Positions 10,875 to 60,788 of a stretch of DNA of 64,000 nucleotides are shown in pieces. Numbering within the stretch: the stretch's first letter is position 1; the number at the start of each line of letters is the position of its first letter. The notes under the pieces were generated by a model, which worked only from the letters and a program-made list of their open reading frames with translations, did not search any database and was not told the origin of the DNA. Position numbers and translations under genes: made by a program. This DNA comes from a virus (taxonomy: Duplodnaviria; Caudoviricetes), in IMG/VR virus record IMGVR_UViG_3300025769_000104, positions 686-64,685 of that record. One strand, written 5' to 3'.

Positions 10875-11140
10875 TAAATAATTTTTATTTTATTAACTGG
10901 AATTTTGTATGTTGATCTAACTGAAAATAAGTTATAATCATATAATGTGATATATTTGTTAGTAATCTTATCAACATTCATACTTTGACCAAGTAAATAA
11001 TTAGCTTTACGAACAGAATAACTTTTACCAAATCTTTCTGATACTGAATAACAATTGAATTCATAATCTTTACCATCATAGGTAAAAATAAAACTTTCTC
11101 CTTCGTTTAAACTTTTGATTTTTTTACTTAATACTGACAT
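10874..11140 (-). CDS. Hypothetical protein, probably early
   Basis: 88 aa, directly downstream of the conserved early-type promoter. Confidence 0.6.
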   Translation of the reverse strand: MSVLSKKIKSLNEGESFIFTYDGKDYEFNCYSVSERFGKSYSVRKANYLLGQSMNVDKITNKYITLYDYNLFSVRSTYKIPVNKIKII

Positions 11141-11169
11141 AACCTTTATTTTTTATCATTATTTACTTT

Positions 11170-11202
11170 GTAAATATACGAAGGTTATCTTGGGTAGCCA
11201 AA
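11170..11202 (-). promoter_or_regulatory. Host-sigma-type promoter TTGGCTACCCA-N10-CGTATATTTAC
   Basis: Same motif and spacing at 60757 and 61115; resembles Bacteroidota TTTG (-33) / TAnnTTTG (-7). Confidence 0.75.
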
Positions 11203-11205
11203 TTT

Positions 11206-12899: not shown

Positions 12900-14007
12900 T
12901 TTTAAATTGGTTTAGTCTTGAATATAAATCTAAGCCTGTTAAATTTTGTTTAAAACTCCCATCATACCATGTTGAGTAATTGAATGAACCTTCTTCAGTA
13001 ATCAAATTAATTTTAGGATATGTTTTATATCTCATAGAAAACCACTCATTTGCTTTTTCATTTGCCATACTCCAAAAGTCATTTTCGTTTGGGACAAATT
13101 TAGGTCTATTTAAATAATGGAGCATTATAATATCAATAGTTTCATCTATAAAATTTTTGTAATGGTTATTTTGTAACTCTATATCTCCTCCCTCTAATAT
13201 ATTATATATTTGGCCTGCAACTCTAACTGTAGTATTTAAAGAAGTAGCTTCTAAAGGTTCTAAAAAGAATGATGAATTCCCATTATAAGATACATTTTCA
13301 GTAAAATTAATTTTTCTATAATAATTTTCAAAATTTAAATGATTCTCAATATCTCTTACTAAATTATATTCTTTTAAAATCTCTTCTGTTTCAGTTCGAA
13401 TTTCAGAAAAACTAGAACATTCTTTGTTATATAAATAACCTACTGAACATCTATTTTGTAAAGGGATTAAAAATACCCATCCATGAGTTTTTGCAACACA
13501 TAAAGTTTTATTGAATCTAGGTTTATCCCAAGAACAGTTTGATAAATAAACACTATTTACAGGTATAGGGGTTTCAACATAATCATCTTGATTCATTTTA
13601 CCTGTACAATCTATAATATAACTGTTTAGCTCTTCATGTTTTACTCTTTTTTCTATAATATTAACCTTATTTTTTAAATAAGCTGTTATATAATTTTGGA
13701 GTTTGTTAGCATTAAGATGAAGAGCCATTTGTCCTAACCCAAACCAATGTGTAAAATTATTTTTACCCCAATTTAATTTTTCAATTCCTTGTTTATAATG
13801 AGCATCAAACATAGAAAGATCATCATAATTCAAATTTAGTTTTTCGGATAAAAATCTAGGAAGGACTAAATCTGTTCCTTCACCTACAGATAAGGGAGGG
13901 ATTGAGGAATCATAATACCAATCAATATCATATCCTAAGTTATAAAAATTTAAAGCAGTTATACAACCAGCAGTACCTTTTCCTATAATTGAGACTTTTT
14001 TAGACAT
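12892..14007 (-). CDS. Tryptophan-halogenase-like flavoprotein
   Basis: IIGKGTAG, VGEGT, AHYKQGI, IDCTG, GWVFLIPL, FLEPLEATS. Confidence 0.8.
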   Translation of the reverse strand: MSKKVSIIGKGTAGCITALNFYNLGYDIDWYYDSSIPPLSVGEGTDLVLPRFLSEKLNLNYDDLSMFDAHYKQGIEKLNWGKNNFTHWFGLGQMALHLNANKLQNYITAYLKNKVNIIEKRVKHEELNSYIIDCTGKMNQDDYVETPIPVNSVYLSNCSWDKPRFNKTLCVAKTHGWVFLIPLQNRCSVGYLYNKECSSFSEIRTETEEILKEYNLVRDIENHLNFENYYRKINFTENVSYNGNSSFFLEPLEATSLNTTVRVAGQIYNILEGGDIELQNNHYKNFIDETIDIIMLHYLNRPKFVPNENDFWSMANEKANEWFSMRYKTYPKINLITEEGSFNYSTWYDGSFKQNLTGLDLYSRLNQFKNG

Positions 14008-18485: not shown

Positions 18486-19394
18486 TTAAGGATTCCAACC
18501 TCCTCCACTAGCAGTAACTAGTACACTTTTATTTGATCCATAAGATGTTCCTACAGAATTTGTAGCATAAGCTCTAACATAATATGTAGTACCATTAGGT
18601 CCTACTAAAAGAGCACCTGTATCTTGAGAAGCAGAATATAACCCAGTAGTCCCACTAACAGATTTATTAAAAACATTACTTGAGGTAGTTGGGTTAGTGG
18701 AAGTACTTCCAACGAAACCTCTTGCTGTAATACTAGCACCCCCATCACTTGTTACATTACCACCCATATCTATTTCGTCATTTGTACTATCAAAAGTAAC
18801 AGTTCCTGTAGTTACAGTAGGAGCAGAAGAAGCTGCTGTAGCTGATGAATAAAGCCAATTTATATATAAGAAACTAGTTCCTCCATAAGTACTATTATAA
18901 TAGAAATTAGTGGCATTTACGGTAGTAGCTACGGTTCCTGAAGTACTATTAATTCTCCAACCTGCAAAAGAATATCCACTTGACATAGTAGCAGCAACTC
19001 CTACATAATTTTGCACATTAGAAAGGCTTGTATTATTATACATATAAGTTGTAGATGCATCAGAAGTGGAAAAGGGACTAGTATAACGAACACCTGATGT
19101 TCCGGTTAAACCCTTGCTTAAATTTACACCAAAGTTTCTATCATTATTTCTATAAGAACCTGCATTATAATTACATGATAAACCTGCATAGCTACTTTTA
19201 ACTCTTGGGATTGATGCTAAAAAAGTATATACAGCACATTGCATACAAAAACTATGAGTACAAAATAAACACATACAAGAACATGCTCTATATTTTACCC
19301 CAAACATACCAAAATCACTTTGTGGGGTTGTACCAGTATTTGTATTCCCTCCTAAATATATGTTATTATTCCCAAATGAACCAAAGTATACCAT
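18486..19394 (-). CDS. Putative fibre tip/adhesin with C-terminal FN3-like domain
   Basis: PTVTT...GGNVTSDGG..ITARG...YYVRAYATNSVGTSYG; Cys-rich patch. Confidence 0.6.
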   Translation of the reverse strand: MVYFGSFGNNNIYLGGNTNTGTTPQSDFGMFGVKYRACSCMCLFCTHSFCMQCAVYTFLASIPRVKSSYAGLSCNYNAGSYRNNDRNFGVNLSKGLTGTSGVRYTSPFSTSDASTTYMYNNTSLSNVQNYVGVAATMSSGYSFAGWRINSTSGTVATTVNATNFYYNSTYGGTSFLYINWLYSSATAASSAPTVTTGTVTFDSTNDEIDMGGNVTSDGGASITARGFVGSTSTNPTTSSNVFNKSVSGTTGLYSASQDTGALLVGPNGTTYYVRAYATNSVGTSYGSNKSVLVTASGGGWNP

Positions 19395-19407
19395 ACTCTA
19401 AAAAAAT

Positions 19408-19941
19408 TTAAATATCTTGAACATTGGCTTCTCCAAAAATATTAATATAATAATTTTTTACTTCATTATATGCATATTCATAAACGCTACCTGTTATTTG
19501 ATTTAAGTCAATTCTTGATTTTGTAACTTCTTGACTTGAACTATGAAGTGTTTCTAATGATTCAGTTCTTTGAACTGTAATTTCATTTCCATCATCATCA
19601 TAATCTAAATAATCTACTAATTGATTATCATAAGAACTAGAATAAGTAATAACTTCTACAACTTCACTACTAGTTAAATTAAATTGTAAAAAATTAGGAT
19701 TCCAAGTAAAACTTCCATTAGTAAGTGGTCCTGGGATAAAACCACTTGCATCACTTTCAACATAATCTTCTTGATATGTTGGAAACATAACTGATGCTGC
19801 CTCTTGTGAGGTGTAAGTTCCTACATTGCAACGTAAATGACCTAATGATTTTTCTACATGATAGAAATCAATTCTAGTATAGAAATTTTCATGTGTATTT
19901 CCTAATCCATCTGTGATAGATCCTGTAATGTTTAATGCCAT
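19408..19941 (-). CDS. Hypothetical fibre-associated protein
   Basis: 177 aa, directly downstream of a fibre gene. Confidence 0.5.
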   Translation of the reverse strand: MALNITGSITDGLGNTHENFYTRIDFYHVEKSLGHLRCNVGTYTSQEAASVMFPTYQEDYVESDASGFIPGPLTNGSFTWNPNFLQFNLTSSEVVEVITYSSSYDNQLVDYLDYDDDGNEITVQRTESLETLHSSSQEVTKSRIDLNQITGSVYEYAYNEVKNYYINIFGEANVQDI

Positions 19942-19942
19942 T

Positions 19943-22900
19943 TTATTTATTTTCTATTAATTGTTTTAATTCTTTAATTGCTTGGATTAATACTGCTACT
20001 AATTTTTCATATCTAACAGCTTTATATCCATTATCTCTAGTAGCTACTATTTCTGGGAATAGTGCTTCTACTTCTTGTGCTATTACTCCAATATCAGCTC
20101 CTTCATTTTCATGGATTCCATCTTTAGCAATCCAATCAAAGTGGATACCATTTAATTGTGTAATTTTATCTAAAGCGTTTTCAATTGTTCTTCTATTATC
20201 TTTTAATCTAATATCTGAAGAATAGTATGCAATTACATCATTAGTAGCTCTTAAGAGACCTGTTGTACCTGGTGCTGCTGTTCCTAAACCTAATGAGTTT
20301 AATTGAACGTTAGATGAAGTACTATATTGTGTACCTGTTGTACCTTGAGGTCCAGTTGGTCCTACGTTTCCTTGAGGTCCTACGTTTCCTTGTGCCCCAG
20401 TAGCACCTTTTACACCTTGTGGTCCAATTGGTCCAACGTTACCTTGGGCACCTGTTGTACCTTGTGGTCCAGTTGGTCCTACAGGTCCTACGTTACCTTG
20501 AGCTCCAACTTCTCCTTTTTGTCCTTTTGGACCTACGTTTCCTTGAGCACCTGTTGTACCTTGTGGTCCAATTGGTCCAACGTTACCTTGGGCACCTGTT
20601 GTACCTTGTGGTCCAGTTGGTCCTACGTTACCTTGAGCACCTTTAACACCTTGAGGACCTACGTTACCTTGGGCTCCAGTAGTACCTTGTGGACCTGTTG
20701 GTCCTACATTTCCTTGAGCTCCTGTTTGTCCTTTTTGTCCTTTAACACCTTGTGGACCAGTTGCTCCTTGTGGACCTACGTTACCTTGAGGACCTATAGC
20801 TCCTGTTGCTCCCTGTGGTCCTGTTGGCCCTACGTTTCCTTGAGCACCTGTTGCACCTTTTTGTCCTTTTACACCTTGTGGTCCAGTTGGTCCTACAGGT
20901 CCTACGGGTCCTACGTTTCCTTGGGCTCCAGTTGTACCTTGTGGTCCAGTTGGTCCTACGTTACCTTGAGCACCTGTTTGTCCTTTTTGTCCTTTTACAC
21001 CTTGTGGTCCAGTTGGTCCTACAGGTCCTACGTTTCCTTGAGCACCTGTGGTACCTTGAGCACCTATGGTACCTTGAGCACCTGTAGGTCCTACATTTCC
21101 TTGGGCTCCAGTAGCACCTTTAACACCTTGAGGACCTACGTTACCTTGGGCTCCAGTAGTACCTTGTGGACCTGTTGGTCCTACATTTCCTTGAGCTCCT
21201 GTTTGTCCTTTTTGTCCTTTAACACCTTGTGGACCAGTTGCACCTGTTGTTCCTTGTGGTCCTATATTACCTTGAGGTCCTGTTCCACCAGTTGCACCTT
21301 GTGAACCAGTATTACCTTGAGGACCTACTGCTCCAGTAGCACCTTTAACACCTTGTGGTCCTGTTGGTCCTACGGGTCCTATAGGTCCTACATTACCTTG
21401 AGCTCCAGTTGCACCTTTTTCTCCAGTTGTTCCTTGTGAACCTACATTACCTTGTGGACCTACATTTCCTTGGGCTCCAGTAGCACCTTTAACACCTTGA
21501 GGACCTACGTTACCTTGGGCTCCAGTAGTACCTTGTGGACCTGTTGGTCCTACATTACCTTGAGGACCAGTTGCTCCAGTATCACCTTTAACACCTTGAG
21601 GTCCAGTTGCACCAGTTGTACCTTGTGAACCAGTAGCACCCTTAGCACCAGTTGCACCTTGTGGCCCAATTGGTCCAGTTGCACCTGTATCACCTTTTTG
21701 TCCTTTATCTCCTCTATCACCTGTAGTAACAAACGAACAGATAACATCTTCATTATTTGTATGAGGGTTAGTATCTGATGAAGCTACAACTGTTACGTTT
21801 AATGTCCACCAACCTGTATTATTTGTTAGATCGGATATAGCAAAAAGAATAAAATTTTCTGGATCTATTCTATTAGGAATATTAATATGTCCTTTTATAG
21901 CTGAAGTAACATTATCTATACTTGTTAAGAAGCTATCAATACTATTTGAATTATCGTCTGTAGAATCTATATAAATTTCAGTAGCTGAACTTTGGGTAAC
22001 ATTATTTAATCTAACCCTTCCAGTTCCAGGATCTGCTGCTGTAGTACCTGTATCAAATGTATAATCAAATGAAGCACCACCAAATGTACCATCTGTACCT
22101 TGAGAACCTATTTCTCCTTTTTGTCCTTTTGTACCTGTTGCACCTTGTGCACCTACATTACCTTGAGGACCTACGTTTCCTTGGGCACCTGTTGCACCTT
22201 TAACACCTTGGGGTCCAACATTACCTTGTGGACCAGTTGCTCCTTGTGTACCATCTGTACCTTGAGTACCAGTTGGTCCTACATTTCCTTGAGGTCCAGT
22301 TGCACCAGTTGCACCTTGTGAACCAGTATCACCTTTAACACCTTGAGGACCTACGTTACCTTGAGGACCTACATTACCTTGAGGACCTGTAGCTCCAGTA
22401 GCACCTTTTTCTCCATCTGTACCTTGTGATCCTGTAGATCCTGTATCACCCTTTGCTCCAATTGCTCCTTGTGGTCCTGTTGGTCCAATTGCACCTTTAT
22501 CTCCTTGTGGTCCTACATTACCTTGTGGACCTACGTTTCCTGTAGTACCTTGAGGTCCAATATTACCTTGTGGGCCAGTTGCACCTGTATCTCCTTTTTC
22601 TCCTTGAGGACCAGTTGTACCCTGTGAACCAGTTGCACCTGTTTCTCCTTTAACACCTTGTGGGCCTACATTACCTTGAGGGCCAGTTGCACCTGTATCT
22701 CCTTTTTCTCCTTGAGGACCAGTTATACCTTGTGGGCCTACATTACCTTGAGGGCCAGTTGCACCTGTATCTCCTTTTTCTCCTTGAGGACCAATTGCAC
22801 CTGTTGTTCCTTGTGAACCTGTATCTCCAGTATCTCCTGTTATACCTTGTGTACCTATATTACCTTGTGGACCTGTAGCACCTTGTGCACCTACATTACC

Positions 22901-24304
22901 TTGTGGACCTGTTGGTCCAATTGCACCTTTATCTCCTTGTGCACCATCTGTACCTTGAGTACCAATTATTCCTTGAGCACCATCTGTTCCTTGTGTACCA
23001 GTTGCACCTGTATCTCCTTTTTGTCCAGTTGCACCTTGTGCTCCAGTTGCACCTTGTGCTCCTAAATCTCCTATAATTTCTATAGCACCAAAAGTTTCAT
23101 CTCCATTTCCTACATTATTCCAACCACTTTTATCTATATGAATAATTCCTAATTCTTTCCAAGTAGTATTATCTGTAAGACTAACAACATAGAAACTGTC
23201 AAAATATTGTTGATTAGCTCTAGCTCTAAATGTAAAAATAGAACCTGTTGGATTGGTTGAATCTACAAGTGTATCTAAAATAGGACCAACTCCTAATCCA
23301 TCTGCATCTGTATTACTGATATAAACTTCAGATGCTGCTGCAGGGTCGGTAGCGTTAAATCTAAAATTACCTGAACCTGGGTCTGCTGATGCTGTAGATG
23401 TGGAATAATTCCAAGCTGCTCCAAATGTAGAAACACCTTCTGTTCCTTGAGTTCCAGTATCTCCTTTTTGTCCAGTTGCACCTTGAGCTCCAGTATCTCC
23501 TTTTTCTCCGTCTGTTCCTTGTGATCCAGTTGCTCCAGTATCTCCTTTGTCACCAGTAGCTCCCTTAATACCATCTGTACCTTGAGAACCAATAGTTCCT
23601 TGTGAACCTACATTACCTTGAGCTCCCGTTTCTCCTTGAACTCCAATATCTCCTTTATCACCTGTTATACCTTGTGAACCAATTTCTCCTTTTTGTCCTT
23701 TTGTACCATCTGTACCTTGAGTACCAGTATCACCTTGTGCACCTGTATCACCTTTATCTCCTGTTATACCTTGTGCACCTGTATCTCCAGTTATGCCTTG
23801 AGCTCCAGTATCACCTTTATCACCTTGTGCACCAGTATCTCCTTTATCACCTGTGTCACCTTTATCACCAGTTACACCTTGAGCTCCTGTAGTACCTTGT
23901 AAACTTAAGTCTGTTCTATATGTAACATATCCATTTGTATCAGATACTAATACTCTAGTTTGTGTACTTCCTTCTTGAATATTTGATATAGTTAAATTAC
24001 CTCCTATAAGTGTTCTTGAAGCTTCAATATTACTAGCTGAAACTAAACTTTGATCAGTTAATGATAAGTCATGACCAATAAATCCTCCAGCAACTTCTAG
24101 TTGTCCTTCAGGATACCATCTAATTTTGTCTTGATCATCAACCCATAAAGAAGATGAAGTACTCCCTGAGGAAACAAATGGGATCGAGTACGATAAGTTT
24201 GGTACTGATCCTGATCCTGTGGGAACTACATTATATGATTCTGCTGATAAATTTGCTAATTCAGCATCACTACCCGAAACAATTACTTTTTTCCAATTAG
24301 GCAT
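19943..24304 (-). CDS. Collagen-like fibre with C-terminal peptidase S74 intramolecular chaperone
   Basis: Three long Gly-X-Y tracts, two globular inserts, YYSSDIRLK...GVIAQEVE...VRYEKL. Confidence 0.9.
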
Positions 24305-24316
24305 AGTACTTAAGTT

Positions 24317-24366
24317 TATTATGGTTGGTTACACATTGTGCCCACTTCCGTTAACGGCCAATAATA
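24317..24366 (-). ncRNA. Candidate structured 5' leader RNA
   Basis: GC-rich island with nested stems between the late motif and the fibre ATG. Confidence 0.45.
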
Positions 24367-24369
24367 TAG

Positions 24370-24379
24370 TTATAAATAT
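24370..24379 (-). promoter_or_regulatory. Putative late promoter ATATTTATAA
   Basis: Recurrent intergenic motif; this copy precedes the structured leader. Confidence 0.65.
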
Positions 24380-24419
24380 GAAAATAATTTCTTTAGTTAA
24401 AGAAATCAAACAATTTTAA

Positions 24420-25034
24420 TTAAGTAGGGCAAGAAACAGAAAATAAATCCCAAGCAGTACCCCCATTAGGACCATCTATAATAATAGTAAAAGTAGTTGG
24501 TAATTCTGTATTTTTATAAAAACATAAATCTACATTACCATCAGTTGAATAAGAATTAGCTGCTGGGATATTTGGTAAAACACCTATTTGATTACCATGA
24601 TTTCCTGTTGGAGTACCATTTCCTCTAGTATTTGATAAATTATAAGGAGGAAAATCTTGATCTGAATAACTTACTGCTTCACTGTTACCTTGTATAAAAG
24701 TTTGTTGTTGATTATCAAAATCATATCGAGTTAAAGAAGTAACATTTGAAATAGAGGCTGTATAACTATCATAATTTGCTTTAGATGCTAAACCATCTCC
24801 TACAAATAAAGAATCAGCTACTGTAGAACCACTCCATACTAATCTAAATCTATCAGGTACATTTTGAGCATTAAAAGAAGCAGTAACAGGACCAATTGCA
24901 TTTCCTAAAACAATAGCTTCAGCATAATATATACCTGCTCCTCCACCAAAAGAAATACTTCCAGCATTGCAAGGAATTAATGCAGGTGGATATAAAGAAC
25001 GCTGCATTACCCTAAAGAAATTGATATTACTCAT
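24420..25034 (-). CDS. Putative virion beta-sandwich protein
   Basis: FNAQNVPDRF...GTAWDLFSVSCP; lies between fibre genes. Confidence 0.5.
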   Translation of the reverse strand: MSNINFFRVMQRSLYPPALIPCNAGSISFGGGAGIYYAEAIVLGNAIGPVTASFNAQNVPDRFRLVWSGSTVADSLFVGDGLASKANYDSYTASISNVTSLTRYDFDNQQQTFIQGNSEAVSYSDQDFPPYNLSNTRGNGTPTGNHGNQIGVLPNIPAANSYSTDGNVDLCFYKNTELPTTFTIIIDGPNGGTAWDLFSVSCPT

Positions 25035-28000
25035 TTTTTAAACTGTCGATTTGTTTTTGTTGTTCCTTAATTGCTTCAATTAATAAAGGAATTATTTTTT
25101 CATACCTGACAGCTTTGAATCCACTTTCTCTTGTTGTTACAACTTCAGGTAATACCTTTTCTATTTCTTGTGCAATAACCCCTACATCATGGCCTTCATT
25201 ACCATGTAAATATACTTTTTCTTCTTCAGTTAATGGTTTCCAATCAAATTCTACACCATTAATTTTCATTACTTTATCTAAAGAACCTGCTATAGGTGTA
25301 ATATTATCTTTAAAGTTTATATCTGAGGTAGAATATGCTACAACATCATTTGTAAAATCACCTCTACCTACTGTAGTTGATAAAGAAGCAGTTTGCCCAA
25401 CTGTTAATGAACCAGTAAATATTGTATCTCTATTTGCTGTAAAGGTAGTATCTGAGAATGTAAAATCTGCAGATCCTGTAATGCCTCCATTTCCTCCTAA
25501 TACTCCAATTCTAGTATCTCCATCACCACTAATTAAAGCACCTCCTGTAGGTCCTGTATCACCTTTATCTCCAGTTGTACCTTGAGTTCCATCCGTACCC
25601 TGGGCTCCATCTGTACCTTGTGTTCCTGTTCCATCTGTACCTTGTGCACCGTCTGCTCCTTGAACACCTAAACCTGCACTACCTTGTGCACCTTTTTCAC
25701 CATCTGTACCTTGAGTACCTGTACCAGTAGCACCTTGTGCACCTTTTTCACCAGCTGCACCTTGAACAGTTAGACCAGCTGCACCTTGAGCCCCTTTTGA
25801 TCCATCAGCTCCATCAGCATATAATTGTACTTGAACACTTTCTCCATTACTAAAGGTTCCATCAACCTCAATACTTAAAGCTCCAAAAGTAAATAAAGCT
25901 CTAGTAGCATTAATTGTATTAAGTGAAGCATCGCTAATTGTAATAACATCTGAGTCACCTCCAAATATTAAAAATCTATTTACACTTGCAAATATATTAT
26001 TATGGCCAAAACCATCATAATCTGTTAATGCTATAGACATTGAAGTAGCAGATGCAATGGTAGTATTATTAAATCTTACTTGACCTTGAGAACCGCCCAT
26101 ATCTGTACTAGTACTATATTGATAGGTTAATCCGGCTTGTTCTCCTTGATCACCTTTAGCACCAGTTGTACCTTGAGGAGCAGCAGCACCTCCTGTACCT
26201 TGGGAACCAATAAATCCTTTATCACCTTGTGCACCAGGGCCACCTTTTTCTCCTGCTCCTCCTTTATCACCTTGTGTTCCTTGAGTACCAACAAGACCTT
26301 TAGGACCTGTAGTACCTTGAGCTCCTGTAGCACCTTGTGCACCAGTATCACTTGAATCTCCGTATCCTAAACTCCAATAATAGTTAGTACCATCATAATA
26401 AACACCTAATAAATCTTTAGATCCTGCAGCTGCTGAAGCAGTATATGGAACACCTGATCCTATGAATACTGAATCTCCACCTAAATTAACATTTAATTTT
26501 CTTCCTCCTGTTGCGTCTTGTTTAACAATTAAAACACCAGTATCGCCCGTTGTCCATCCATCTACTGCTAATGTTCTATCCCCTCCTAATGTAACTGAAG
26601 CATTAGAACCACTAGTTATATTCCAAGTAATAGTAGCACCATCAGTTAGGGTTTGCTGATCAATCTGCATGTTACCTTGAAGGTGAAGAGTACCAGAAGT
26701 ACCTTGTGTGTTGCTTTCTATAAAAGTTAAACCTGTTCCTCCATCAAGTACCCCTGAGCTATTATATTGGATAGAAGTATTTGATCCGCCAGGTGTTGAA
26801 CCTCCTCCACCACCGTAAGAACCAGTATAATAAAATCTACCATCATCAGGATCCCATACTACTACATTAGAGTTTCCAATTCCTTGTTGTAAATCTATTT
26901 GTGTAGCAGATAAAGAACCAGAAATTCTTACACTACCTGAGATATCAAAATTACCCTTAGATGCACTTGTAATTAATGTGATATTACCTGTATCTGGTTT
27001 ATAATTTAAACTTCCTACACTGTTCCCAACGCCCCCTGCTTTATAATCTACTAAATGAAAAATATTAGCATTATTACTTCCAGAAATATTACTATTAAAT
27101 TCAAGAGACATTGCATGAAATATCCCACTAGTAAAGTTATTTCCACCAATTTTTACTGCTGATAATGAAGTATAATTAGAAGGAACACTTTTAACAACAA
27201 AAGCACTATAAATACCTGAGCTTCCAGTTACAATAAAACTACCTGAAGTTAAAATTGCATAATTACCATCATAAGTAAATTTAGCAGAACCAGATATTGC
27301 ACTAGTTCCTGTAGCTGTTAAAATATTATTATCAATATTACCTTGAATTAAAGCAGCATCTACACCTGTAGTACCTTGAGCTCCTTGTTCCCCTTTTTGT
27401 CCAGGTCCTCCTTTATCACCTGCAGTACCTTGTGCACCATCACCACCTTTTTCTCCTGCTCCTCCTTTAGCTCCTGCTGTTCCTTGGGCACCATCAGTTC
27501 CTTGTGCTCCTGTTTCTCCTTTTTCTCCAGCAGTTCCTTGTGCTCCATCTGTACCTTGGGCACCATCAGTTCCTTGTGCTCCATCTGTACCTTGGGCACC
27601 ATCAGTTCCTTGTGCTCCATCTGTACCTTGAGTACCATCAGTTCCTTGTGCTCCAATAGTACCTTTTTCTCCAGCAGTACCTTTTTCTCCAACTGTACCT
27701 TGAGCACCATCAGTTCCTTGTGCACCTGTAGCACCTTTATCTCCTACACCCCCAGGTTCACCTTTTGTACCTGTAGTACCTTGTGAACCTCTATCACCTA
27801 CTGTTGAAAATGATACTATAACGTCTTCGTTATTTGAAAATGGTGATCCTGATGGTCCTGAGTTTGTAATATCTATAGTCCACCAACCATTATTATTTGT
27901 TAAATCTGATATAGCGAATAACAAAAATTGAGAAGAATCTAATCTATTAGCTATTCTCATGTATCCTTTAACAGCAGAAGTTACTGCATCAATACTTTGT

Positions 28001-30219
28001 AAAAAGGAATCTATATTATTACTATCATCATCATTACGAGAAATATAAGCGTCAGTAGCTGATGATTGTGGTGGTACACCACCTGATACATCTAATCTTA
28101 CTTTACCTGTACCTGGGTCAGTAGATGATGTTGATATGTCGTAAGTATAATCAAAAGTAGCTCCACCAAAGTTACCATCAGCACCTTGGGTTCCTGTATC
28201 TCCTTTATCTCCAGTTATACCTTGGGCTCCTTTTACACCATCTATACCTTGTGCCCCATCTGTTCCTTGTGTTCCATCTGTTCCTTGAGTTCCATCCGTA
28301 CCTTGGATTCCATCTGTTCCTTGAGTTCCATCTGTACCTTGTGTCCCATCTGTTCCTTGTGCTCCTTTATCACCTTGAGCACCTTTATCTCCATCTGTTC
28401 CTTGAGTTCCATCTGTTCCTTGAGTTCCATCTGTTCCTTGAGTTCCATCTGTACCTTGTGTCCCATCTGTTCCTTGTGCTCCTTTATCACCTATAGTACC
28501 TTGTGAACCATCATCACCTTTATCTCCAGTTATACCTTGTGAACCTCGGTCTCCTTTAACTCCAATATCTCCTTTATCACCTTGATCCCCTGTAATGCCT
28601 TGAGCGCCTTGTGCACCTTTTTCTCCACCCGCACCTTGAGTACCATCTGCACCTTGGGTACCATTTACACCTTGTGGACCTATAGTACCTTGTGAACCTT
28701 GTTCTCCTTTATCACCTATAGTGCCTTGAGCACCTATTTCTCCTTTTTGTCCTTTTTCACCAATTTCACCTTTTTCACCTTTAATACCAATAGCACCTTG
28801 GACACCTACCCCACCTTTTTCTCCTTGTTCTCCTTTTTCTCCATCTGTTCCCTGTGTGCCATCTGTTCCTTGAGTACCTATTGTTCCTTGAGAACCATCA
28901 CTACCTTTATCTCCTTGGGTACCTTGTGATCCATCAACTCCTTGAGGACCTCCTGCACCTTGGGCTCCTGTAGTACCTTGTGTACCTATGTTGCCTTTTT
29001 CACCAGTTATACCTTGTGATCCATTATTTCCTTTAGCACCATTTTCACCTTTTTCTCCTTTACTACCTGCAGTACCTTGTGTACCATCTGTACCTTGGGT
29101 ACCATCCGTACCCTGTGAACCTGTATCACCTTTATCTCCAGTTGTACCTTGAGTTCCATCCGTACCTTGAGTTCCATCCGTACCTTGTGAACCTATTGTT
29201 CCTTGTGAACCTATTTCTCCTTTATCACCTATTGTACCTTGAGTACCAATTTCTCCTTTTTGTCCTTTATCACCTTGAGCTCCTTTGTCCCCATCTGTTC
29301 CTTGTGAACCAGTACCACCTTTATCACCAATAGTACCTTGTGTACCATCTGTTCCTTGGGTACCATTAGTACCTTGAGCGCCTACTTCACCTTTTTGACC
29401 TTTATCTCCTCTATCACCTACTGTTGTAAATGATACTAAAATATCTTCTTGATCTGAAAAAGGTGTTGCTGAAGAACTAGCTTGGATTCCTATATCTAAA
29501 GTCCACCATCCAGTATTATCTGTTAAATCAGTAATTTCAAATAGTAAAAATTGAGTAGAATCTAATTTATTAGAAATTCTAACATGACCTTTAATTGCTG
29601 ATGTTACCGCATCAATCGATTGCATAAATGAATCAATTGAATTGGCATTATCATCTGTAGAATCTATATATGATGCAATTGAATTTGCTTGGGTAGTATT
29701 AGCTAATCCTAAATATCCTGTACCGGAATCTACAGCTGCTGTTGAAGAAGTAAATGTATAATCAAATGAAGCACCACCAAAAGAACCTTCAGTACCTTGA
29801 GAACCAGTTTCACCTTTAACACCATCTGTACCTTGAGAACCTACTTCTCCCTTTTGTCCTTTTTCACCTATAGGACCTATATCTCCTTTATCTCCTTTAT
29901 CTCCTACAGGACCAGCACCACCAGTAGTACCTTGTGGACCTAAATCTCCGATAGTACCTTGAGCTCCTCCTGTACCTTGAGCTCCCGTTTCTCCTTTTAC
30001 ACCTGTAATACCTTGGGAACCATCTACACCTTGTGGACCATCTGCACCTTGTGGACCATCTGCACCTTGTGCACCAGCGGGTATACCAGTTAATCCACTT
30101 CCATCACCTTCAAATGAACCTGAAAAAGATCCACTAAATTGTGATGCTGAAATAATAGATGCTGATATATTATAATTATCATCATGCCCATCTAGGACTA
30201 TTTTTTTCCACTGTGCCAT
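25027..30219 (-). CDS. Collagen-like fibre with peptidase S74 chaperone
   Basis: Multiple Gly-X-Y tracts (GTQGTD, GDK/GEK), repeated globular domain, YSTSDINFK...GVIAQEIE. Confidence 0.9.
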   Translation of the reverse strand: MAQWKKIVLDGHDDNYNISASIISASQFSGSFSGSFEGDGSGLTGIPAGAQGADGPQGADGPQGVDGSQGITGVKGETGAQGTGGAQGTIGDLGPQGTTGGAGPVGDKGDKGDIGPIGEKGQKGEVGSQGTDGVKGETGSQGTEGSFGGASFDYTFTSSTAAVDSGTGYLGLANTTQANSIASYIDSTDDNANSIDSFMQSIDAVTSAIKGHVRISNKLDSTQFLLFEITDLTDNTGWWTLDIGIQASSSATPFSDQEDILVSFTTVGDRGDKGQKGEVGAQGTNGTQGTDGTQGTIGDKGGTGSQGTDGDKGAQGDKGQKGEIGTQGTIGDKGEIGSQGTIGSQGTDGTQGTDGTQGTTGDKGDTGSQGTDGTQGTDGTQGTAGSKGEKGENGAKGNNGSQGITGEKGNIGTQGTTGAQGAGGPQGVDGSQGTQGDKGSDGSQGTIGTQGTDGTQGTDGEKGEQGEKGGVGVQGAIGIKGEKGEIGEKGQKGEIGAQGTIGDKGEQGSQGTIGPQGVNGTQGADGTQGAGGEKGAQGAQGITGDQGDKGDIGVKGDRGSQGITGDKGDDGSQGTIGDKGAQGTDGTQGTDGTQGTDGTQGTDGTQGTDGDKGAQGDKGAQGTDGTQGTDGTQGTDGIQGTDGTQGTDGTQGTDGAQGIDGVKGAQGITGDKGDTGTQGADGNFGGATFDYTYDISTSSTDPGTGKVRLDVSGGVPPQSSATDAYISRNDDDSNNIDSFLQSIDAVTSAVKGYMRIANRLDSSQFLLFAISDLTNNNGWWTIDITNSGPSGSPFSNNEDVIVSFSTVGDRGSQGTTGTKGEPGGVGDKGATGAQGTDGAQGTVGEKGTAGEKGTIGAQGTDGTQGTDGAQGTDGAQGTDGAQGTDGAQGTDGAQGTAGEKGETGAQGTDGAQGTAGAKGGAGEKGGDGAQGTAGDKGGPGQKGEQGAQGTTGVDAALIQGNIDNNILTATGTSAISGSAKFTYDGNYAILTSGSFIVTGSSGIYSAFVVKSVPSNYTSLSAVKIGGNNFTSGIFHAMSLEFNSNISGSNNANIFHLVDYKAGGVGNSVGSLNYKPDTGNITLITSASKGNFDISGSVRISGSLSATQIDLQQGIGNSNVVVWDPDDGRFYYTGSYGGGGGSTPGGSNTSIQYNSSGVLDGGTGLTFIESNTQGTSGTLHLQGNMQIDQQTLTDGATITWNITSGSNASVTLGGDRTLAVDGWTTGDTGVLIVKQDATGGRKLNVNLGGDSVFIGSGVPYTASAAAGSKDLLGVYYDGTNYYWSLGYGDSSDTGAQGATGAQGTTGPKGLVGTQGTQGDKGGAGEKGGPGAQGDKGFIGSQGTGGAAAPQGTTGAKGDQGEQAGLTYQYSTSTDMGGSQGQVRFNNTTIASATSMSIALTDYDGFGHNNIFASVNRFLIFGGDSDVITISDASLNTINATRALFTFGALSIEVDGTFSNGESVQVQLYADGADGSKGAQGAAGLTVQGAAGEKGAQGATGTGTQGTDGEKGAQGSAGLGVQGADGAQGTDGTGTQGTDGAQGTDGTQGTTGDKGDTGPTGGALISGDGDTRIGVLGGNGGITGSADFTFSDTTFTANRDTIFTGSLTVGQTASLSTTVGRGDFTNDVVAYSTSDINFKDNITPIAGSLDKVMKINGVEFDWKPLTEEEKVYLHGNEGHDVGVIAQEIEKVLPEVVTTRESGFKAVRYEKIIPLLIEAIKEQQKQIDSLKNE
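28242..28490. repeat. Imperfect 18-bp tandem repeat encoding GTQGTD
   Basis: Repeated ccatctgttccttgagtt units; similar arrays near 27480-27660 and 29080-29200. Confidence 0.8.
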
Positions 30220-30243
30220 ATTAAGTTATATGGTTATAAATAT

Positions 30244-30453
30244 TTATTCTTCATTCTTAGGTGAAGAGATATCTTTTTCTATTTGTTTTGAAATTTCGCG
30301 ATCTTCTATTTGTTTAATTTCTTCATTTAGTTTAATTTGTAAGGTGCCTATAAAAAGAGCATCTACACCCCCTATTTGAATAAAATCAAGGCCTCTTCTT
30401 AAAGCTTTTACTTCTCTTAAAGATAACCCTTCAATAGAATATAACTCATCCAT
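30244..30453 (-). CDS. Small hypothetical protein, possible fibre chaperone
   Basis: 69 aa in the fibre cluster. Confidence 0.5.
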   Translation of the reverse strand: MDELYSIEGLSLREVKALRRGLDFIQIGGVDALFIGTLQIKLNEEIKQIEDREISKQIEKDISSPKNEE

Positions 30454-30464
30454 AATATATTTTT

Positions 30465-30668
30465 TTATTTAGTAGAATTTAAATATAACTGTTGAAGTTT
30501 CAAAGTAACATTAAATAATATTTCTACTTCTTTTCCTTCAAATTTATGATCATGTATTATTTTTAATAAAAACATGATTTCTTCCGAAGATAAAGAAGGC
30601 AAACCCTTAGGGTTTGCCTCTTTTTTTATCTCATCTTGAATTAATATTTGACCAGCTTTAAAACCCAT
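30465..30668 (-). CDS. Small hypothetical protein, possible fibre chaperone
   Basis: 67 aa; late-motif variant upstream. Confidence 0.5.
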   Translation of the reverse strand: MGFKAGQILIQDEIKKEANPKGLPSLSSEEIMFLLKIIHDHKFEGKEVEILFNVTLKLQQLYLNSTK

Positions 30669-30692
30669 TGAATTTATCTTTTATGATAAATA

Positions 30693-32240
30693 TTATGAGT
30701 AGATATAAATATCTCCTGAAGCTGAAACAAACATATTACCTGCTTTAGTGTATTTAGCAACAACACCTGAAGCTGAGTCTCCACCTGAACCAACTACTAC
30801 AGTAGACATAAACGCATCTGGTACGTAAGCTTCTGTAGATGAATCAAATGATCCTGTTACTCCCCATCTTAATGTTGCAGCATCGTATGCGAATGCTTCA
30901 CCATTAGTGGCACTATCTTGTTGTACTACAATACCACCATCTCCAGTAGCAGTTGAACCAGATGCTAATCTAATAAATCTATCAGCTACATCTAAATCTT
31001 CTCTGTGTTGGAATGAAGCAGTACCTGCTACTACTAAGTTTCCTTGAAGGTTTGTATCACCACCTACTGTAAGTCCTGAAGTAATAGTTACTGAATCTGG
31101 TAAACCAACTGTTACAGTTCCACCTGCACCAAGTGTAATTGAACCACCTGATACTTCAATTTCGTTTGCAGTACCTTGAACAGTTAAGCTAGTGTTACCT
31201 TGAACAGCCGTGTTAGCACTTGAACCGTAATCTACAGCGATTGTTGGGTTTGAACCTTCACCTGAGTTTGAACCAATTGTTACACCAGTTCCACTTCCAA
31301 GTGCCGCTACATAATCACCAGTTGTTTGAGTTCCTAATGCTACTGCATTATCAGCAATTTCAACACCAGTAATACTAGAAGCTGAAATATGAACTGAACC
31401 TATAATTGCATCTGCTGCGATTGAAGCTGAAGTAACAGCTCCTGCTGCGATCATAGCATTTGAAATACCACCTGCTTTAACTCTTAAGCTATCAGTTGAG
31501 ATTTCGATTGATGAATCATCAACATTAACTGCTAATGCAGTACCTCCACCACCTGATAAACCATCACCAGCTACTGAAGTTGCAATTTGAGTTGCTGTAA
31601 TTCCAGCATCTGATACTTTAACTCCACCTGCTCCTACTGTTAATGTAGAACCATCTGCTTGTACTGCGAATGTTGCTGTTGCAGAACCATCATAAGGACC
31701 ACCTGTTAAACCATTACCTGATGTTAAATCTGGTAAATCAGTTGTTCCTACAAATGAACCAGTAAAGCTACCAGTAAATCCAGTTAAGCTTAATTGTGAT
31801 ACTGTGTTACCTAATTCTACAGCAGTGCTACCGAAAGTAATACTATTATTGCTTAATGCTGAATTAGGAATACCTGATAAGTTAGCTTCAGAAACACTAA
31901 TACCTCCTGCACCAACGGTGATTGTAGAATCTGCTGCTTCAACAACAAACGCTCCTCCAGAAGTTGTAATACCATTTCCAGCTAAAGAACCAGAATCAAC
32001 AGAAACAGTTACTCCAGCTGAACTACCGTCGTAACTAAAATCTATGATACCCGCACCATCGGTTAACGGGTTAGCGTTAGACGCTACTACTCCTGTAAGA
32101 TTTGAACCATCTCCAATAAAAGATCCAGTAAATGATCCTGTTAAGGATACATCACTCGCATCTGCTATAAGATAGCCCGCATCGTTGTTTAATTGTGATA
32201 TCGCGGAGCCCGATACTACAATCTTTTTCCATGTTGCCAT
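30693..32240 (-). CDS. Tail fibre-like protein
   Basis: G/S/T-rich repeats (AGDGLSGGG..LAVNVDDSSIE); MATWKKIVVSGS N-terminus. Confidence 0.75.
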   Translation of the reverse strand: MATWKKIVVSGSAISQLNNDAGYLIADASDVSLTGSFTGSFIGDGSNLTGVVASNANPLTDGAGIIDFSYDGSSAGVTVSVDSGSLAGNGITTSGGAFVVEAADSTITVGAGGISVSEANLSGIPNSALSNNSITFGSTAVELGNTVSQLSLTGFTGSFTGSFVGTTDLPDLTSGNGLTGGPYDGSATATFAVQADGSTLTVGAGGVKVSDAGITATQIATSVAGDGLSGGGGTALAVNVDDSSIEISTDSLRVKAGGISNAMIAAGAVTSASIAADAIIGSVHISASSITGVEIADNAVALGTQTTGDYVAALGSGTGVTIGSNSGEGSNPTIAVDYGSSANTAVQGNTSLTVQGTANEIEVSGGSITLGAGGTVTVGLPDSVTITSGLTVGGDTNLQGNLVVAGTASFQHREDLDVADRFIRLASGSTATGDGGIVVQQDSATNGEAFAYDAATLRWGVTGSFDSSTEAYVPDAFMSTVVVGSGGDSASGVVAKYTKAGNMFVSASGDIYIYS

Positions 32241-35199: not shown

Positions 35200-35235
35200 G
35201 GTCTAAGGTATATTTTGTTATAAATATATTATTTT

Positions 35236-38056: not shown

Positions 38057-41000
38057 TTACTCTATAAGTTTCTTATCCCTTAAGTCTTTTATTACTTCAT
38101 CTGTATTAAGTTCTATATCTCCTGTTGGATATTCTGGGAAGAAGAAACCATTTGGTGTATTATCTTTTTTAGTTAATGGTAAAATCGTAGTTACATATGA
38201 TGTAGATCCTGATGAAGTTGAACTCATGGATTGAGTATAAAACGCCCCATTCCCAGGTTCTGGAGTTACCTCTCCAATCCCATCTTGGTCAGAAGAAAAA
38301 GTTGTAATAGCATCTGTTAAATTGTTGTTTACTTGAGTTTGGACTACTTTTAAATTACCATAAGGAAATAAATTATCTAATATTACAGTATTAGGTGAAT
38401 ATCTATATCTTCTAATTAAGAAAAAGTCCATATTTACTGAAGGATCAACTTCTCCATCTAATGTTAAAGTTAATAAATTTTCATTTTCAAGTGGTTCAGG
38501 TGCCTCTATTTCTATAATTTTATAAGTTAAAGCTTCACTATTTTCAAACCTAATTTCATCATTTACTTGAAGTTCCCATTCTATATTATATTGTGGGATC
38601 TCTGTATCTGTAGGTTCAAGTCCACCTGGGAATCTTAAATTATTTGAAGCAGTATATGGTAGATACCCCATTATATAACCATTACCATAGGCATCATTCC
38701 CGTTTTCTGCTATTAATTGAATTTTATCACGTGTTTCATATTGTCCTCCAAAAGCAGATCCTGAAAATACCCAGTAAGGGGCATTAAGTGCACCATCTTG
38801 TTCAGAAGAAGCAGCTCTATCTCCTTGTAAGGCAATGTTTATATAAGGACCACTATACGCTCTTGCAGGACAAGGTCTACTATCAAATTGTGCTGCTGTT
38901 AATACTGGGTTCCAGTAATTTCTTGCAGCATCGACACTTTCAGGATTATAATATTGATCAGCTTGTACTCTATAATATACACCACCATTTAATATTTCAT
39001 TTGTTTCTATATTAAATATAAATGAAGCATATAGAGCAGATTGAATTTGTCTTCCTAATTGAGTAGTAGCCGATCTTAAAGCTTGAGGGTTTATTTGGAA
39101 ATGGTATTCTGTATTATTATTCCTAAATCCTGCATTGTTGGATCCAAAAATATTAATTAAATCTAAATCTAATTCTGCTCCTCCTGAGAAGAATAGTCTT
39201 AATATTGGTCTGGTTACTTGTGACATAGTAACAAGATTCCAACCTCCAGTACCACTACTACTTTTATATACTCTTAATTTAATATATCCTACATCTGTTC
39301 TATTATAATCAGAGCTATCGTTCCACCCACCTGCATCAGTTCTATATTCAAAAGGTGGAGTTGTAGGAAATTCCGTTCTCATTCTAATTCTCCAGTTATC
39401 TGATAAATCACTAGAGGGAGTTCCAAATCCTTGTACTATATCTTTAGTAAAGAAGATATAACCTTGTTTATTTGATTGAGTAGATGCATCATATGGAGGA
39501 TTAGTAACAGGGGTGAATTCTGATATAATTGATGATGAAGCTTCATTTGAGCCATAAGTACCAGCATCTCCATATCTGGAGCCAGTAGAAAATGAAAAAT
39601 ATCCACTTTGAGATGCCCCAGCAAAAACATTATTCATGGTAATGTTTTTAACAACATCATTTGCAGAGGATCTACTAGATTTATTTTGGGCAGAATAACT
39701 TCTTCCATTAGCAGTCATAGATTGTTGGAGGAAGGATGCAGTAAAGTTACTTATTACCTCTGGATTCCCCCCTAATGGGACAAATTGACTAAATCCATCA
39801 GCAGAAGTTTGAGACCACAATACACCAACTGGTTCTTTAGCTACTTCATATATTGAATTTAAACCATTTAAGCTATCATATTGAGATGAACCACTAATTT
39901 GATTTACACCTAATCTTCCTAAATCACCTGCTGTCCAACTTCCTTGTACATCAAATGCTGTATATGGTGATAATATAGGTTGTAATGCATCCCCAGCAGC
40001 ATTAATTAAATATTTTAAGTTTAATTGTACTTTATTATTTACTACTGGATAAGGATCTAACACCTGATCAGCATATGCAAAATATCCTGTTAAATAATCA
40101 ATTACTGGTAGATTACCATACCCATTTTTTAATAATTCAATACTATTTACCTTTGAAGCTTCAGTTTCACTACCTAAATATCTAGGATTAATTTGTGCTA
40201 ATTGAGTATAATATGATTCTGGTACTGTAGCTTTTGAAGCTGAACCAGATAATATTAACTGAAAATTGGTTGGCATGTAAGCACCTGTAGTATAATCTAC
40301 ATTTTGGATAAATTTATTTGTTCTTTCTCCAACCACATTATTAATTAAAGGTTGACAATCTGGAGTATTACTTAAACCTAAAGTATTGTCAAATGCATTT
40401 TCTATAAATGTAGGTACTCTACCATCACCCTCTATACTTTGAGTTGGTGTGTTAAATTCTAAGTAATATTCTGATACTACTAATGAACTTTCAATTGTTT
40501 TTAAAGGTTGAGAGGATGTTACTGCTAATGATATTTGTAAACAATCTTTAATTCTAATAGATTGAGATGGAATTAAATAACTCATAGTAATAGCTAAACC
40601 ATTAACATGAATATTTTCATCCATAAACATAGATTCAGTAACAAAATCTCCTGTTACACCAAAAGGTCTAGATGGATAACTACCAGTATAAATTCTTAAT
40701 GAAGCAGTAGGCCAAGTTGGTCCATCTCCTGCTTCACCTTCCCCATAATCATCTGTTCCATAATCTGCAGTACCATATTTTGCGCCATCAGGATCACTAC
40801 CTGTCCATGCTGTTAAGAACATTGAGGCTGTTACTTGAACATCATTTTGTGGTAATTGATTAAAAATATATAAACCATCTAAACTAGAAGATAAGGAAGC
40901 GGAATATGAAATATATACATCGCTTACTCTAGTAGCAAAAATATTAGATGGGGTAGTTCCTGGGGTATCAGGGGAAGTAATAGTAACATTACAAGTAGAT

Positions 41001-42385: not shown

Positions 42386-42405
42386 GTCTTATATAAATAT
42401 TTATT

Positions 42406-52072: not shown

Positions 52073-52102
52073 AGATAATTATATTTTGTTATAAATATTA
52101 GG

Positions 52103-57191: not shown

Positions 57192-57299
57192 AACCTCTTT
57201 TTTTATTTTCTTTAAATTTTTCTGTAATAATACGAATTAATTCCCCAGTTGGATTATGGGCAATATGTTTTAATTTGGATTTCTGTGGAAAAGTCTTCA

Positions 57300-57467
57300 C
57301 TATTGATGTTCGACTAGATCATTTAAATTTTCTAGTACTCCTTTTAGTTTAGTAATTTGATCAATATAAGTTTGTCTTGGCTCACCGGTATTAACTATTC
57401 TTGTTAACTCAGTTAAACCACTTTCTAGTTGTCCTAATTTCTTTTGTACTAATTCTTTATTTCTCAT
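57300..57467 (-). CDS. Small 55-aa hypothetical protein (below ORF-track cutoff)
   Basis: MRNKELVQKKLGQLESGL...VEHQ; A-rich initiation context. Confidence 0.6.
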   Translation of the reverse strand: MRNKELVQKKLGQLESGLTELTRIVNTGEPRQTYIDQITKLKGVLENLNDLVEHQ

Positions 57468-57554
57468 AATTTATTTATTATTTAAACAGGGTATCCCTTA
57501 ACCCCCTTTATCACCCCTTTATCTTCCTCCCCTTTTCCATACAACCCGTATTTC

Positions 57555-57584
57555 CAAGGTACAAGGGAAAATTTACACATCCAA
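57555..57584 (-). promoter_or_regulatory. Host-type promoter TTGG...TACCTTG
   Basis: Same 23-nt offset as the conserved motif. Confidence 0.45.
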
Positions 57585-58360: not shown

Positions 58361-58384
58361 AATCTATTGTTTGATTATAAATAT

Positions 58385-58579
58385 TTACTTTTCTAGTTGA
58401 TTTAAAAATTTCTCTTTTTTAATTGCATCTTGCTTCTTTTTTCTTTTAAGAGATGAAGGTTTGATAAATTCTTTTCTCTTTTTTAATTCTTTGATAATTT
58501 GAGTATCTCGAAATTTATTTTTAAATCTTTTAAGAGCTTGATTTATATTTTCATTTTTTCCTATTTTAATTATTAGCAT
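58385..58579 (-). CDS. rpsU: Ribosomal protein bS21
   Basis: MLII...ENINQALKRFK.K...ELKKRKEFIKPS..KR; Bacteroidota-like. Confidence 0.9.
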   Translation of the reverse strand: MLIIKIGKNENINQALKRFKNKFRDTQIIKELKKRKEFIKPSSLKRKKKQDAIKKEKFLNQLEK

Positions 58580-60718: not shown

Positions 60719-60756
60719 AACTTTAATTTTTAAATTTTTGTAATTATTAATATGTG

Positions 60757-60788
60757 GTAAATATACGAAAGGAAGCCTGGGTAGCCAA
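60757..60788 (-). promoter_or_regulatory. Host-sigma-type promoter, copy 2
   Basis: TTGGCTACCCA-N10-CGTATATTTAC. Confidence 0.75.

Follow-up and report, generated by a model that had tools for sequence, protein, structure and literature searches.

Small conserved RNA folds that lie in the 5' untranslated region (UTR) a few bases from the AUG, with variable peripheral helices round a conserved core, are characteristic of translational riboswitches and other start-hiding leaders, such as preQ1-II and SAM-II. Autogenous operators, such as the leader pseudoknot of T4 gene 32 and the operators of ribosomal-protein operons, are structured elements by the initiation region of a single gene. Stem-loops of the ompA type stabilise a message from its extreme 5' end. 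The put RNA of phage HK022 is phage-encoded and promoter-proximal and acts in cis on its own transcript; it consists of two hairpins acting on RNA polymerase. Here, a 50-nucleotide (50-nt) element is described at positions 24317-24366 of a 64-kb stretch of viral DNA (the window), which is part of an IMG/VR virus record with an estimated completeness of about 40%. The element makes up nearly all of the 5' leader of a tail-fibre gene. It is an instance of a real, compact and conserved structured RNA motif of the sense strand, and related phages, well over a hundred of them, preserve this motif while its paired bases change in step.

The motif shares with preQ1-II and SAM-II type leaders the small conserved fold close to the AUG and the variable helices round a conserved core, and in two of its sub-classes the start or the first codons are predicted to be covered. 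In contrast to them, it has no Rfam match, no Shine-Dalgarno sequence to hide and no known ligand; the gene behind it encodes a virion fibre rather than a metabolic protein, and most instances have no expression platform. As in autogenous operators, the element stands by the initiation region of one gene whose product is needed in fixed amounts, and its conserved core suggests a specific partner. However, it shows no sequence or structural similarity to these operators and no protein is known to bind it. Like the ompA-type stem-loops it is probably located at the extreme 5' end, about 5 nt after a promoter-like box, but it is a three-way junction with invariant junction bases instead of a plain hairpin. 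It also resembles put in being phage-encoded, promoter-proximal and cis-acting, whereas a three-way junction tied to a start codon context is different from the two hairpins of put.

The fibre-gene leader holds a conserved three-way junction

A compact structured RNA was proposed for this leader in an earlier note, which was made from the sequence alone. The sense-strand sequence from 24366 to 24317 is exactly as written there, and the end of the element, 12 nt before the fibre ATG (24304), agrees as well. The element is a GC-rich island as described (40% GC versus 13% in the rest of the gap at 24367-24419, 25% in the 12-nt linker and 32% in the window). The minimum-energy fold of the 50-mer is the second of the two alternatives offered in that note, in which UAUUAU.GG/CCAUAAUA encloses two hairpins. 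The architecture is a three-way junction of the helices P1, P2 and P3. A UGG/CCA pseudoknot, which the note had considered possible, is not found: UGG/CCA is the nested lower helix of P3 both in the minimum-energy fold and by covariation. The fold energy of the 50-mer (-7.8 kcal/mol, z +0.64) is no better than chance, with 140 of 200 shuffles folding equally well or better, and folds with flanks are also near chance (z +0.18 and +1.0). Therefore, the element is unproven from its own sequence, and it is the comparative evidence that places it above chance.

For the comparison, IMG/VR was searched with the first 140 residues of the fibre, which gave 80 loci. The upstream regions of these loci contain the same element with evident compensatory changes. 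When the window and 35 distinct instances (36 sequences) were aligned by MAFFT without fitting to a structure, unguided RNAalifold returned the same three helices, and 9 of the 18 pairs had compensatory double changes. In the 35 distinct rows 96.6% of 617 cells were paired, versus a shuffle mean of 85.9% (none of 500 shuffles reached the observed value), and 81 cells were changed on both sides versus 23.6 expected. Slid controls gave 25-50% paired cells across the alignments (29-46% for the 35-row set).

A covariance model, R1, was built from the motif alignment. R1 has one match in the window (68.7 bits, E 2.5e-20; the next best reaches 10.7 bits), which holds by construction because the window is a seed sequence. 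It matches 74 of the 82 protein-fetched loci. Two of the eight missed loci had matched later fibre residues only, two came from the upstream protein, and four have other starts, namely MANWKK (two), MATWRK and MPTWKK.

An independent set was collected by scanning IMG/VR with a degenerate DNA pattern of the RNA core only, which gave at least 120 contigs. Among the pattern-derived contigs listed, full R1 matches (E <= 1e-3) were found in 95 of 120 (66 of 80 and 29 of 40). In the 62 distinct rows from the first 80 contigs 97.3% of the cells were paired, and 166 cells had double changes versus 47.9 expected; this alignment was fitted to the model and so leans towards the structure. Single-sequence minimum-energy folds gave the same three-way junction in 7 of 8 diverse instances. 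Conservation and covariation in homologous leaders, whose absence was to count against the structure according to the earlier note, are clearly present (74/82 loci; 96.6-97.3% paired).

Anatomy of the motif

Motif positions are numbered from window base 24366 (position 1), and the corresponding coordinates are collected in Table 1. In P1, positions 1-6 pair with 45-50 and G8G9 with C43C44, and position 7 is bulged. The pair columns of P1 show AU/GC exchanges (17/17) and UA/UG exchanges, and the pairs G8-C44 and G9-C43 are nearly invariant. P2 adjoins P1 without a linker. Its inner CC/GG pairs are conserved and its third pair covaries (CG 27, UA 19, UG 4), and the P2 loops of the relatives are mostly of GNRA type or carry long insertions. 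The junction strand J2/3 has one variant, GAG, in the type of L010 and L075.

The lower helix of P3, U23-R24-G25 with C39-Y40-A41, is UGG/CCA in 84 instances and UAG/CUA in 38, and mixed forms were not seen (0). The upper part of P3 begins with G26.U36, which is G.U in 55 of 62 rows and A-U in 7, followed by C27-G35. Between positions 27 and 35 the hairpin varies freely, with at least four pair types per position, and the 3' side of P3 carries the bulge A37, N38. In P1, 26 of the 62 rows have U.G. On the opposite strand, the conserved G.U pairs would turn into C.A mismatches, and therefore the fold belongs to the sense-strand RNA. Across the instances the motif is about 50-65 nt in size and folds with -7.8 to -17.4 kcal/mol, which is a marginal stability.

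Table 1. Features of the fibre-gene leader and of its surroundings (window coordinates)
Feature	Coordinates	Strand	Remarks
Three-way-junction RNA motif, 50 nt	24317-24366	-	nearly entire 5' leader of the fibre gene
P1, 5' strand: UAUUAU, bulged U (24360), GG	24358-24366	-	pairs with 24317-24324
P1, 3' strand: CC then AUAAUA	24317-24324	-	pairs with 24358-24366
P2 hairpin, CCG-UUAA-CGG	24348-24357	-	C10C11(G12) with (C17)G18G19
Junction J2/3, AAG	24345-24347	-	A20, A21 and G22 invariant in the 36-sequence alignment
P3: lower UGG/CCA, G.U and C-G, hairpin CAC-AAU-GUG, 3'-side 2-nt bulge AA	24326-24344	-	
Junction J3/1, single A	24325	-	A42 invariant
Linker from P1 to the start codon, 12 nt	24305-24316	-	A/U-rich, without Shine-Dalgarno
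ATATTTAT box (ATATTTATAA in context)	24372-24379	-	ends 5 nt before P1; late-promoter-like
Tail-fibre gene, 1453 aa	19943-24304	-	collagen repeats and C-terminal Peptidase_S74 chaperone domain
Upstream gene, 204 aa	24420-25034	-	
AU-rich 10-bp hairpin, then UUUU at 24381-24384	24385-24408	-	directly after the stop of the 204-aa gene

The motif is tied to MP[N/S]WKK fibre genes

The DNA pattern that gave the independent set is blind to protein. Among 66 R1 matches derived from it, 61 precede an open reading frame (ORF) starting MP[NS]W[KRN]K, and four more show ATGCC.AA.TGG with the ORF cut by the end of the locus. In the remaining one, L095, an HNH-like ORF is inserted. By a regular expression, the motif precedes 117 of 128 distinct MP.WKK starts, and five more instances were found by the model only. 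It precedes none of the 41 MA[NQST]W[KR]K starts, many of which belong to paralogues in the same contig. The second codon after the motif is CCN in all 122 distinct parsed instances, and the ATG-CCT start of the window fibre gene (24299-24304) is part of this conserved unit.

The leader and the first ~12 codons are common to fibres that are otherwise unalignable, and they occur in contigs of very different sizes. No conserved neighbour gene other than the fibre itself was seen among the fetched loci. The only downstream gene is the MP[N/S]WKK tail fibre, and there is no metabolic or transport theme. As a practical marker, the motif followed by ATG-CCN-AAY-TGG gives the exact start of the fibre gene in unannotated phage contigs.

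The window contains two fibre-like paralogues that have the N-terminal anchor in common with the fibre but possess short leaders without the motif, the MAQWKK gene (25027-30219) and the MATWKK gene (30693-32240). The fibre genes of 1453 and 1730 aa share 72% DNA identity at their 3' ends (19939-20113 versus 25032-25206), which suggests a duplicated fibre module.

In L095 (reverse strand, ~12923-13300 in reverse-complement coordinates), the motif is followed by 9 nt, ATGCCAAAT and then an ORF of 81 aa. By eye this ORF resembles an HNH endonuclease (HH...N...H), and its 3' end overlaps the true fibre start (MPSWRKIIVSGS). In this one example it looks like a free-standing homing-endonuclease gene that was inserted right after codon 3, with the start duplicated.

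Spacing to the start codon and to an upstream box

The AUG follows the end of P1 after 6-19 nt in 117 of the 122 distinct instances, after 24 or 27 nt in two and after 112-119 nt in three, so the structure adjoins the initiation region in most of them, as is expected of a protein-dependent operator. From the end of the core to the ATG there are 12-25 nt in 113 of 115 instances. The 122 distinct linkers consist of 54% A, 28% U, 13% G and 5% C, and AGGA, GGAG, GAGG or AAGG occurs in only 34 of them.

On the other side, a ATATTTAT box stands before the motif in the window, and 84 of 115 distinct instances in other phages also have such a box. The core mostly begins 20-31 nt after the end of the box, so that P1 starts about 5 nt downstream of it. 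In the window, ATATTTAT occurs 15 times on the coding strand and twice on the opposite strand. This total is not above chance (17 versus 19 +/- 4.2), and so the signal lies in the placement: 14 of the 15 coding-strand copies are located within or next to short intergenic gaps, and for 12 of them an ATG follows after 7-33 nt. The earlier note had stated that other late leaders are short, and the box-to-ATG distance is indeed 7-33 nt for 11 other genes, versus 67 nt for the fibre gene. The fibre gene is the only one with such a long distance, and the motif fills it.

The placement suggests that the ATATTTAT box is a late promoter. If it is read in this way, the transcript would start at or beside P1. 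The box resembles the T4 late promoter TATAAATA in its positional pattern: it is short, consists of A and T, precedes many late structural genes by a few bases and has no evident -35 element. However, the sense strand reads ATATTTAT(AA), and the T4 consensus appears on the opposite strand only; TATAAATA itself was counted 6 times on the coding strand of the window and 16 times on the opposite one.

Further ATATTTAT(AA) sites before late structural genes are located on the - strand, for example at 30236-30243, 35220-35227, 42393-42400 and 52091-52098. The box at 42393-42400 ends 7 nt before the ATG of a 1442-aa gene (38057-42385), and therefore the mRNA of this gene may be nearly leaderless.

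Sub-classes differ in the predicted pairing with the start region

The short-P3 class, to which the window belongs, comprises 91 of 121 distinct instances, and the long-P3 class comprises the other 30. In the long-P3 class the loop is GGCAUAA in 27 instances, GGCAUUA in 2 and GGCAA in 1, and the stem beneath varies. GGCAUAA is complementary to UAUGCC, which contains the start codon and the CC of the proline codon. The predicted duplex between loop and start reaches -6.7 to -9.3 kcal/mol, versus about -1.7 for shuffled loops (at most 4% of the shuffles reach the observed value). The base at position -1 is U in 27 of the 30 long-P3 instances versus 42 of the 91 others.

Class II consists of five variants (L016, L037, L044, L010 and L075), with leaders of about 170 nt. 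Here the ATG is 112-119 nt from the motif, and the proximity of the box to P1 is kept nonetheless. A strand CCC-U(n)-CCAAC(G/A)AUA in these leaders can pair with the 5' half of the motif. In the unconstrained fold (-36 to -48 kcal/mol), the 5' half of the motif is paired with this distal strand and the AUG region is open. In folds with the junction imposed, the distal strand instead pairs with UUGGAAAAAA, within the first codons. The leader as a whole is more stable than its shuffles (z -2.6 and -1.8).

Between the motif and the ATG, the class II leaders contain an additional hairpin as well as a strand that resembles a second, degenerate copy of the motif's 3' half (UAUCCAACC...CCAACGAUA).

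A possible restraint on translation initiation

The folded junction with a covered or crowded start in all three classes would favour a cis-acting restraint or gate on translation initiation of the fibre gene, a model which we hold with moderate confidence. A regulatory role is plausible from the position of the motif, the predicted start pairing in two sub-classes and the exclusive link to a proline second codon. The interpretation of the earlier note is partly supported in this respect: the structure and the new family hold, and the riboswitch-like or protein-binding role is left as a candidate.

In the proposed mechanism, the ATATTTAT box 5 nt upstream would act as a late promoter, the RNA would begin at or next to P1, and the 5' UTR would consist of nothing but the motif and its linker of ~10 nt. 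The folded junction would then restrain initiation on the fibre gene. In the short-P3 class, only 6-19 nt of single-stranded A/U-rich leader would be left before the AUG. In the long-P3 class, the loop GGCAUAA would pair with UAUGCC and cover the start codon and the proline CC. In class II, the 5' half of the motif and the codons UUGGAAAAAA would compete for pairing with a switching strand. The tight conservation of the junction suggests a bound factor, a protein or a small molecule, that would stabilise the junction and make the restraint conditional. The marginal stability of the fold would fit an element that is tipped by the ribosome or by such a factor. In Bacteroidota, initiation proceeds largely without Shine-Dalgarno pairing, on unstructured A-rich leaders. 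The A/U-rich and Shine-Dalgarno-poor linkers of the motif fit hosts that initiate in this way.

A more far-reaching version is that the junction would be a new sensor RNA, riboswitch or protein-responsive, of many Bacteroidota-type phages, which would gate the proline-2 fibre by the state of the cell. We consider this version doubtful. If it were true, the MA.WKK paralogues would be made unconditionally, and the phage would tune its fibre set and hence the host range of its progeny. Three read-outs would then have evolved on one sensor, namely distance alone, pairing of the loop with the AUG and a switching strand.

Several observations weigh against a restraint on initiation. For the window's own class, the motif is not predicted to pair with the start region and the folds leave the AUG single-stranded, so here the restraint is argued from distance alone. 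The long-P3 and class II pairings are thermodynamic predictions without covariation. In the long-P3 class, AUG and CC cannot vary, and at the two variable loop positions the changes are uncompensated (L159/L125 and L060). The class II argument comes from five closely related sequences. The proline-codon link may be functional or may reflect shared descent from one ancestor, and motif position 7 and the third base of the proline codon did not covary. The paralogous MA.WKK fibres manage without the element. The putative late promoter is read only from the placement of the box.

One further point concerns transcripts. This region and motifs of its relatives are present in four metatranscriptome runs; these are available as contigs, from which starts, ends and strand cannot be read. 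In two of the runs, which come from different studies, a contig matches the window exactly and breaks off at 24350, inside P2; the opposite ends differ (24145 and 24133). In a third run, a contig of 151 nt extends over 24234-24384, across 24350. The common stop may reflect a branch of the assembly graph at the conserved core or a true end of the RNA, and a restraint on initiation does not explain it.

Other explanations of the conserved junction

The nearest alternatives leave the motif as a leader RNA and change what it does. The junction might cap the long late mRNA as a 5'-terminal stabiliser or processing signal without any role in translation. In most instances P1 begins some 5 nt beyond the promoter-like box, and this distance is kept in class II, where the ATG is 112-119 nt away; both would agree with such a cap, as would the very short leaders of the other late genes. 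However, a plain G+C-rich hairpin would suffice for this purpose. The explanation accounts neither for the invariance of the junction bases nor for a P1 that is weak and A-U-rich; the paralogous fibre gene of 1730 aa is equally long and has no motif, and the complementarities of the long-P3 loop and the switching strand point to the start codon. We therefore regard a stabiliser as unlikely. A small-molecule riboswitch, in which the junction would be the aptamer for a metabolite or signal of the infected cell and the ligand would lock the junction and switch fibre translation, is quite unlikely in our view. No Rfam riboswitch model matches, the data yield no ligand candidate, the sole associated gene encodes a structural tail fibre and not a metabolic or transport protein, and most instances, including that of the window, have no recognisable expression platform. 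These points stand against real likenesses: a compact conserved junction with variable peripheral helices, marginal stability and fixed orientation, a covariation-backed fold in the sense-strand 5' UTR, and, in class II, predicted pairings that are mutually exclusive in a textbook-like manner. An RNA that acts on RNA polymerase, with put-like processive antitermination through the long, repetitive fibre gene and its downstream neighbours, would suit an element directly downstream of a promoter-like box and before a 4.4-kb gene and more genes of the same strand; the position in class II is also more constant relative to the box than to the ATG. It is nevertheless very improbable, since a three-way junction differs from the two-hairpin put RNAs, the proline-codon link and the pairing of the loop with the AUG are left unexplained, and a simple consensus scan found no terminator-like site on the coding strand in 19000-25500.

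The remaining two explanations deny the RNA itself a function. The leader might be a homology block for fibre exchange or the target of a homing endonuclease, with the RNA fold being incidental. The sharing of the leader and ~12 codons by otherwise unalignable fibres in contigs of very different sizes would fit this, and so would the HNH-like ORF that stands exactly after codon 3 in L095. In contrast, the compensatory changes, the G.U pairs on one strand and the fixed geometry with free helix sequence indicate selection on RNA, and one copy per genome means that the motif is not an inversion or recombination pair; a role at the DNA level is most improbable. A chance palindrome-rich stretch without function can be given hardly any weight. 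The energy of the single-sequence fold, which is no better than that of shuffles, would allow it, but it is refuted by the comparative data, with 74 of 82 loci and 95 of 120 loci (the latter among the matches listed), covariation and a gene of one kind throughout. The reading that we retain is a cis-acting restraint on fibre translation.

Distribution and family status

The earlier note did not recognise any known family for the element, and Rfam 15 (4227 models) likewise gave no match at the element when the window was searched from 23800 to 24900 at E <= 10. Ten other loci bearing instances had no match in Rfam 15 at E <= 1, and no small self-cleaving ribozyme (hammerhead, twister, pistol, hatchet or HDV-like) was matched by Rfam at the element. 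The literature, in the parts that were available, contained no description of the motif, nor of a structured leader dedicated to the gene of a phage receptor-binding protein. Within the scope of Rfam 15 and these parts of the literature, the motif is a previously uncatalogued RNA family, of the kind of structured cis-acting leaders. It is a new family with strong covariation that is widespread in aquatic phage metagenomes, and a structured leader on the gene of a phage receptor-binding protein is an unusual target. The motif also offers a route to translation control in the likely Bacteroidota hosts, where Shine-Dalgarno pairing is largely absent.

The motif is present in one copy per genome in five of five large records (110-160 kb), including that of Flavobacterium phage immuto. 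In the window no second copy was found with up to 3 mismatches or with R1, and the exact 50-mer had no match among viral contigs, a set that may exclude the window's own record. By its baseplate protein, the nearest named phage is Flavobacterium phage vB_FspM_immuto, a 160-kb myovirus with 44% amino-acid identity. Its motif is located at 137892-137945, directly before the coding sequence of a 'putative tail fiber-like protein' that starts at 137955. Phage immuto served as a positive control, recovered by the same baseplate-protein route by which the next relatives, Microcystis phage Mel-JY01 and LR756508, were reached; these two had no R1 match. Together with Flavobacterium sp. LMO8, immuto is a cultured pair with the motif that is ready for experiments. 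This phage appears in a preprint on 7-deazaguanine DNA modifications (10.1101/2023.04.13.536721).

When four leader variants were compared by blastn with 50,697 named phage records, three matched only the four immuto records at the motif and one matched nothing. The other blastn rows of one variant were chance matches of 19-24 nt and were discarded. A tblastn search of the named phages with the first 40 aa of the fibre gave no match. The upstream 204-aa protein led to only two related loci, neither with the motif. A pattern scan of bacterial genomes gave at least 120 matches; of 80 loci taken from those listed, 2 passed E <= 1e-3, and both were rejected, having neither the conserved core nor a fibre gene. 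In 151 genomes of one flavobacterial family, with only 37 candidates scored per genome, the one weak match was false. The motif was thus not found in the bacterial genomes searched, which is not proof of absence.

Gene neighbourhood and other features of the window

The window has a G+C content of 32%, and almost all of its genes are on the - strand. The 1453-aa product matches Pfam Collagen (E 1e-139) and Peptidase_S74 (E 1e-16), and with its collagen repeats and Peptidase_S74 domain it is therefore a tail fibre. A baseplate wedge protein gene is among the neighbours of the fibre gene. The gap between the 204-aa gene and the fibre gene is 115 nt and contains the RNA element.

The AU-rich hairpin at 24385-24408 is the sole stable local helix in a 136-nt fold of the element with its flanks, and it is possibly the terminator of the upstream 204-aa gene. 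With one G-C pair it falls short of the three that the consensus terminator scan requires, and the scan therefore misses it.

Four other gaps of 331-473 nt (30220-30692, 10875-11205, 57192-57572 and 58361-58794) have no ORF of at least 90 aa, and the end of the gap at 30220-30692 resembles the tail of a small ORF. The gaps at 60719-60807 and 61087-61164 (- strand) share another conserved block, which reads TTGGCTACCCAGG, then CGTATATTTAC and then CATATTAATAATTACAAA. This block may be another class of promoter or operator, for non-late genes.

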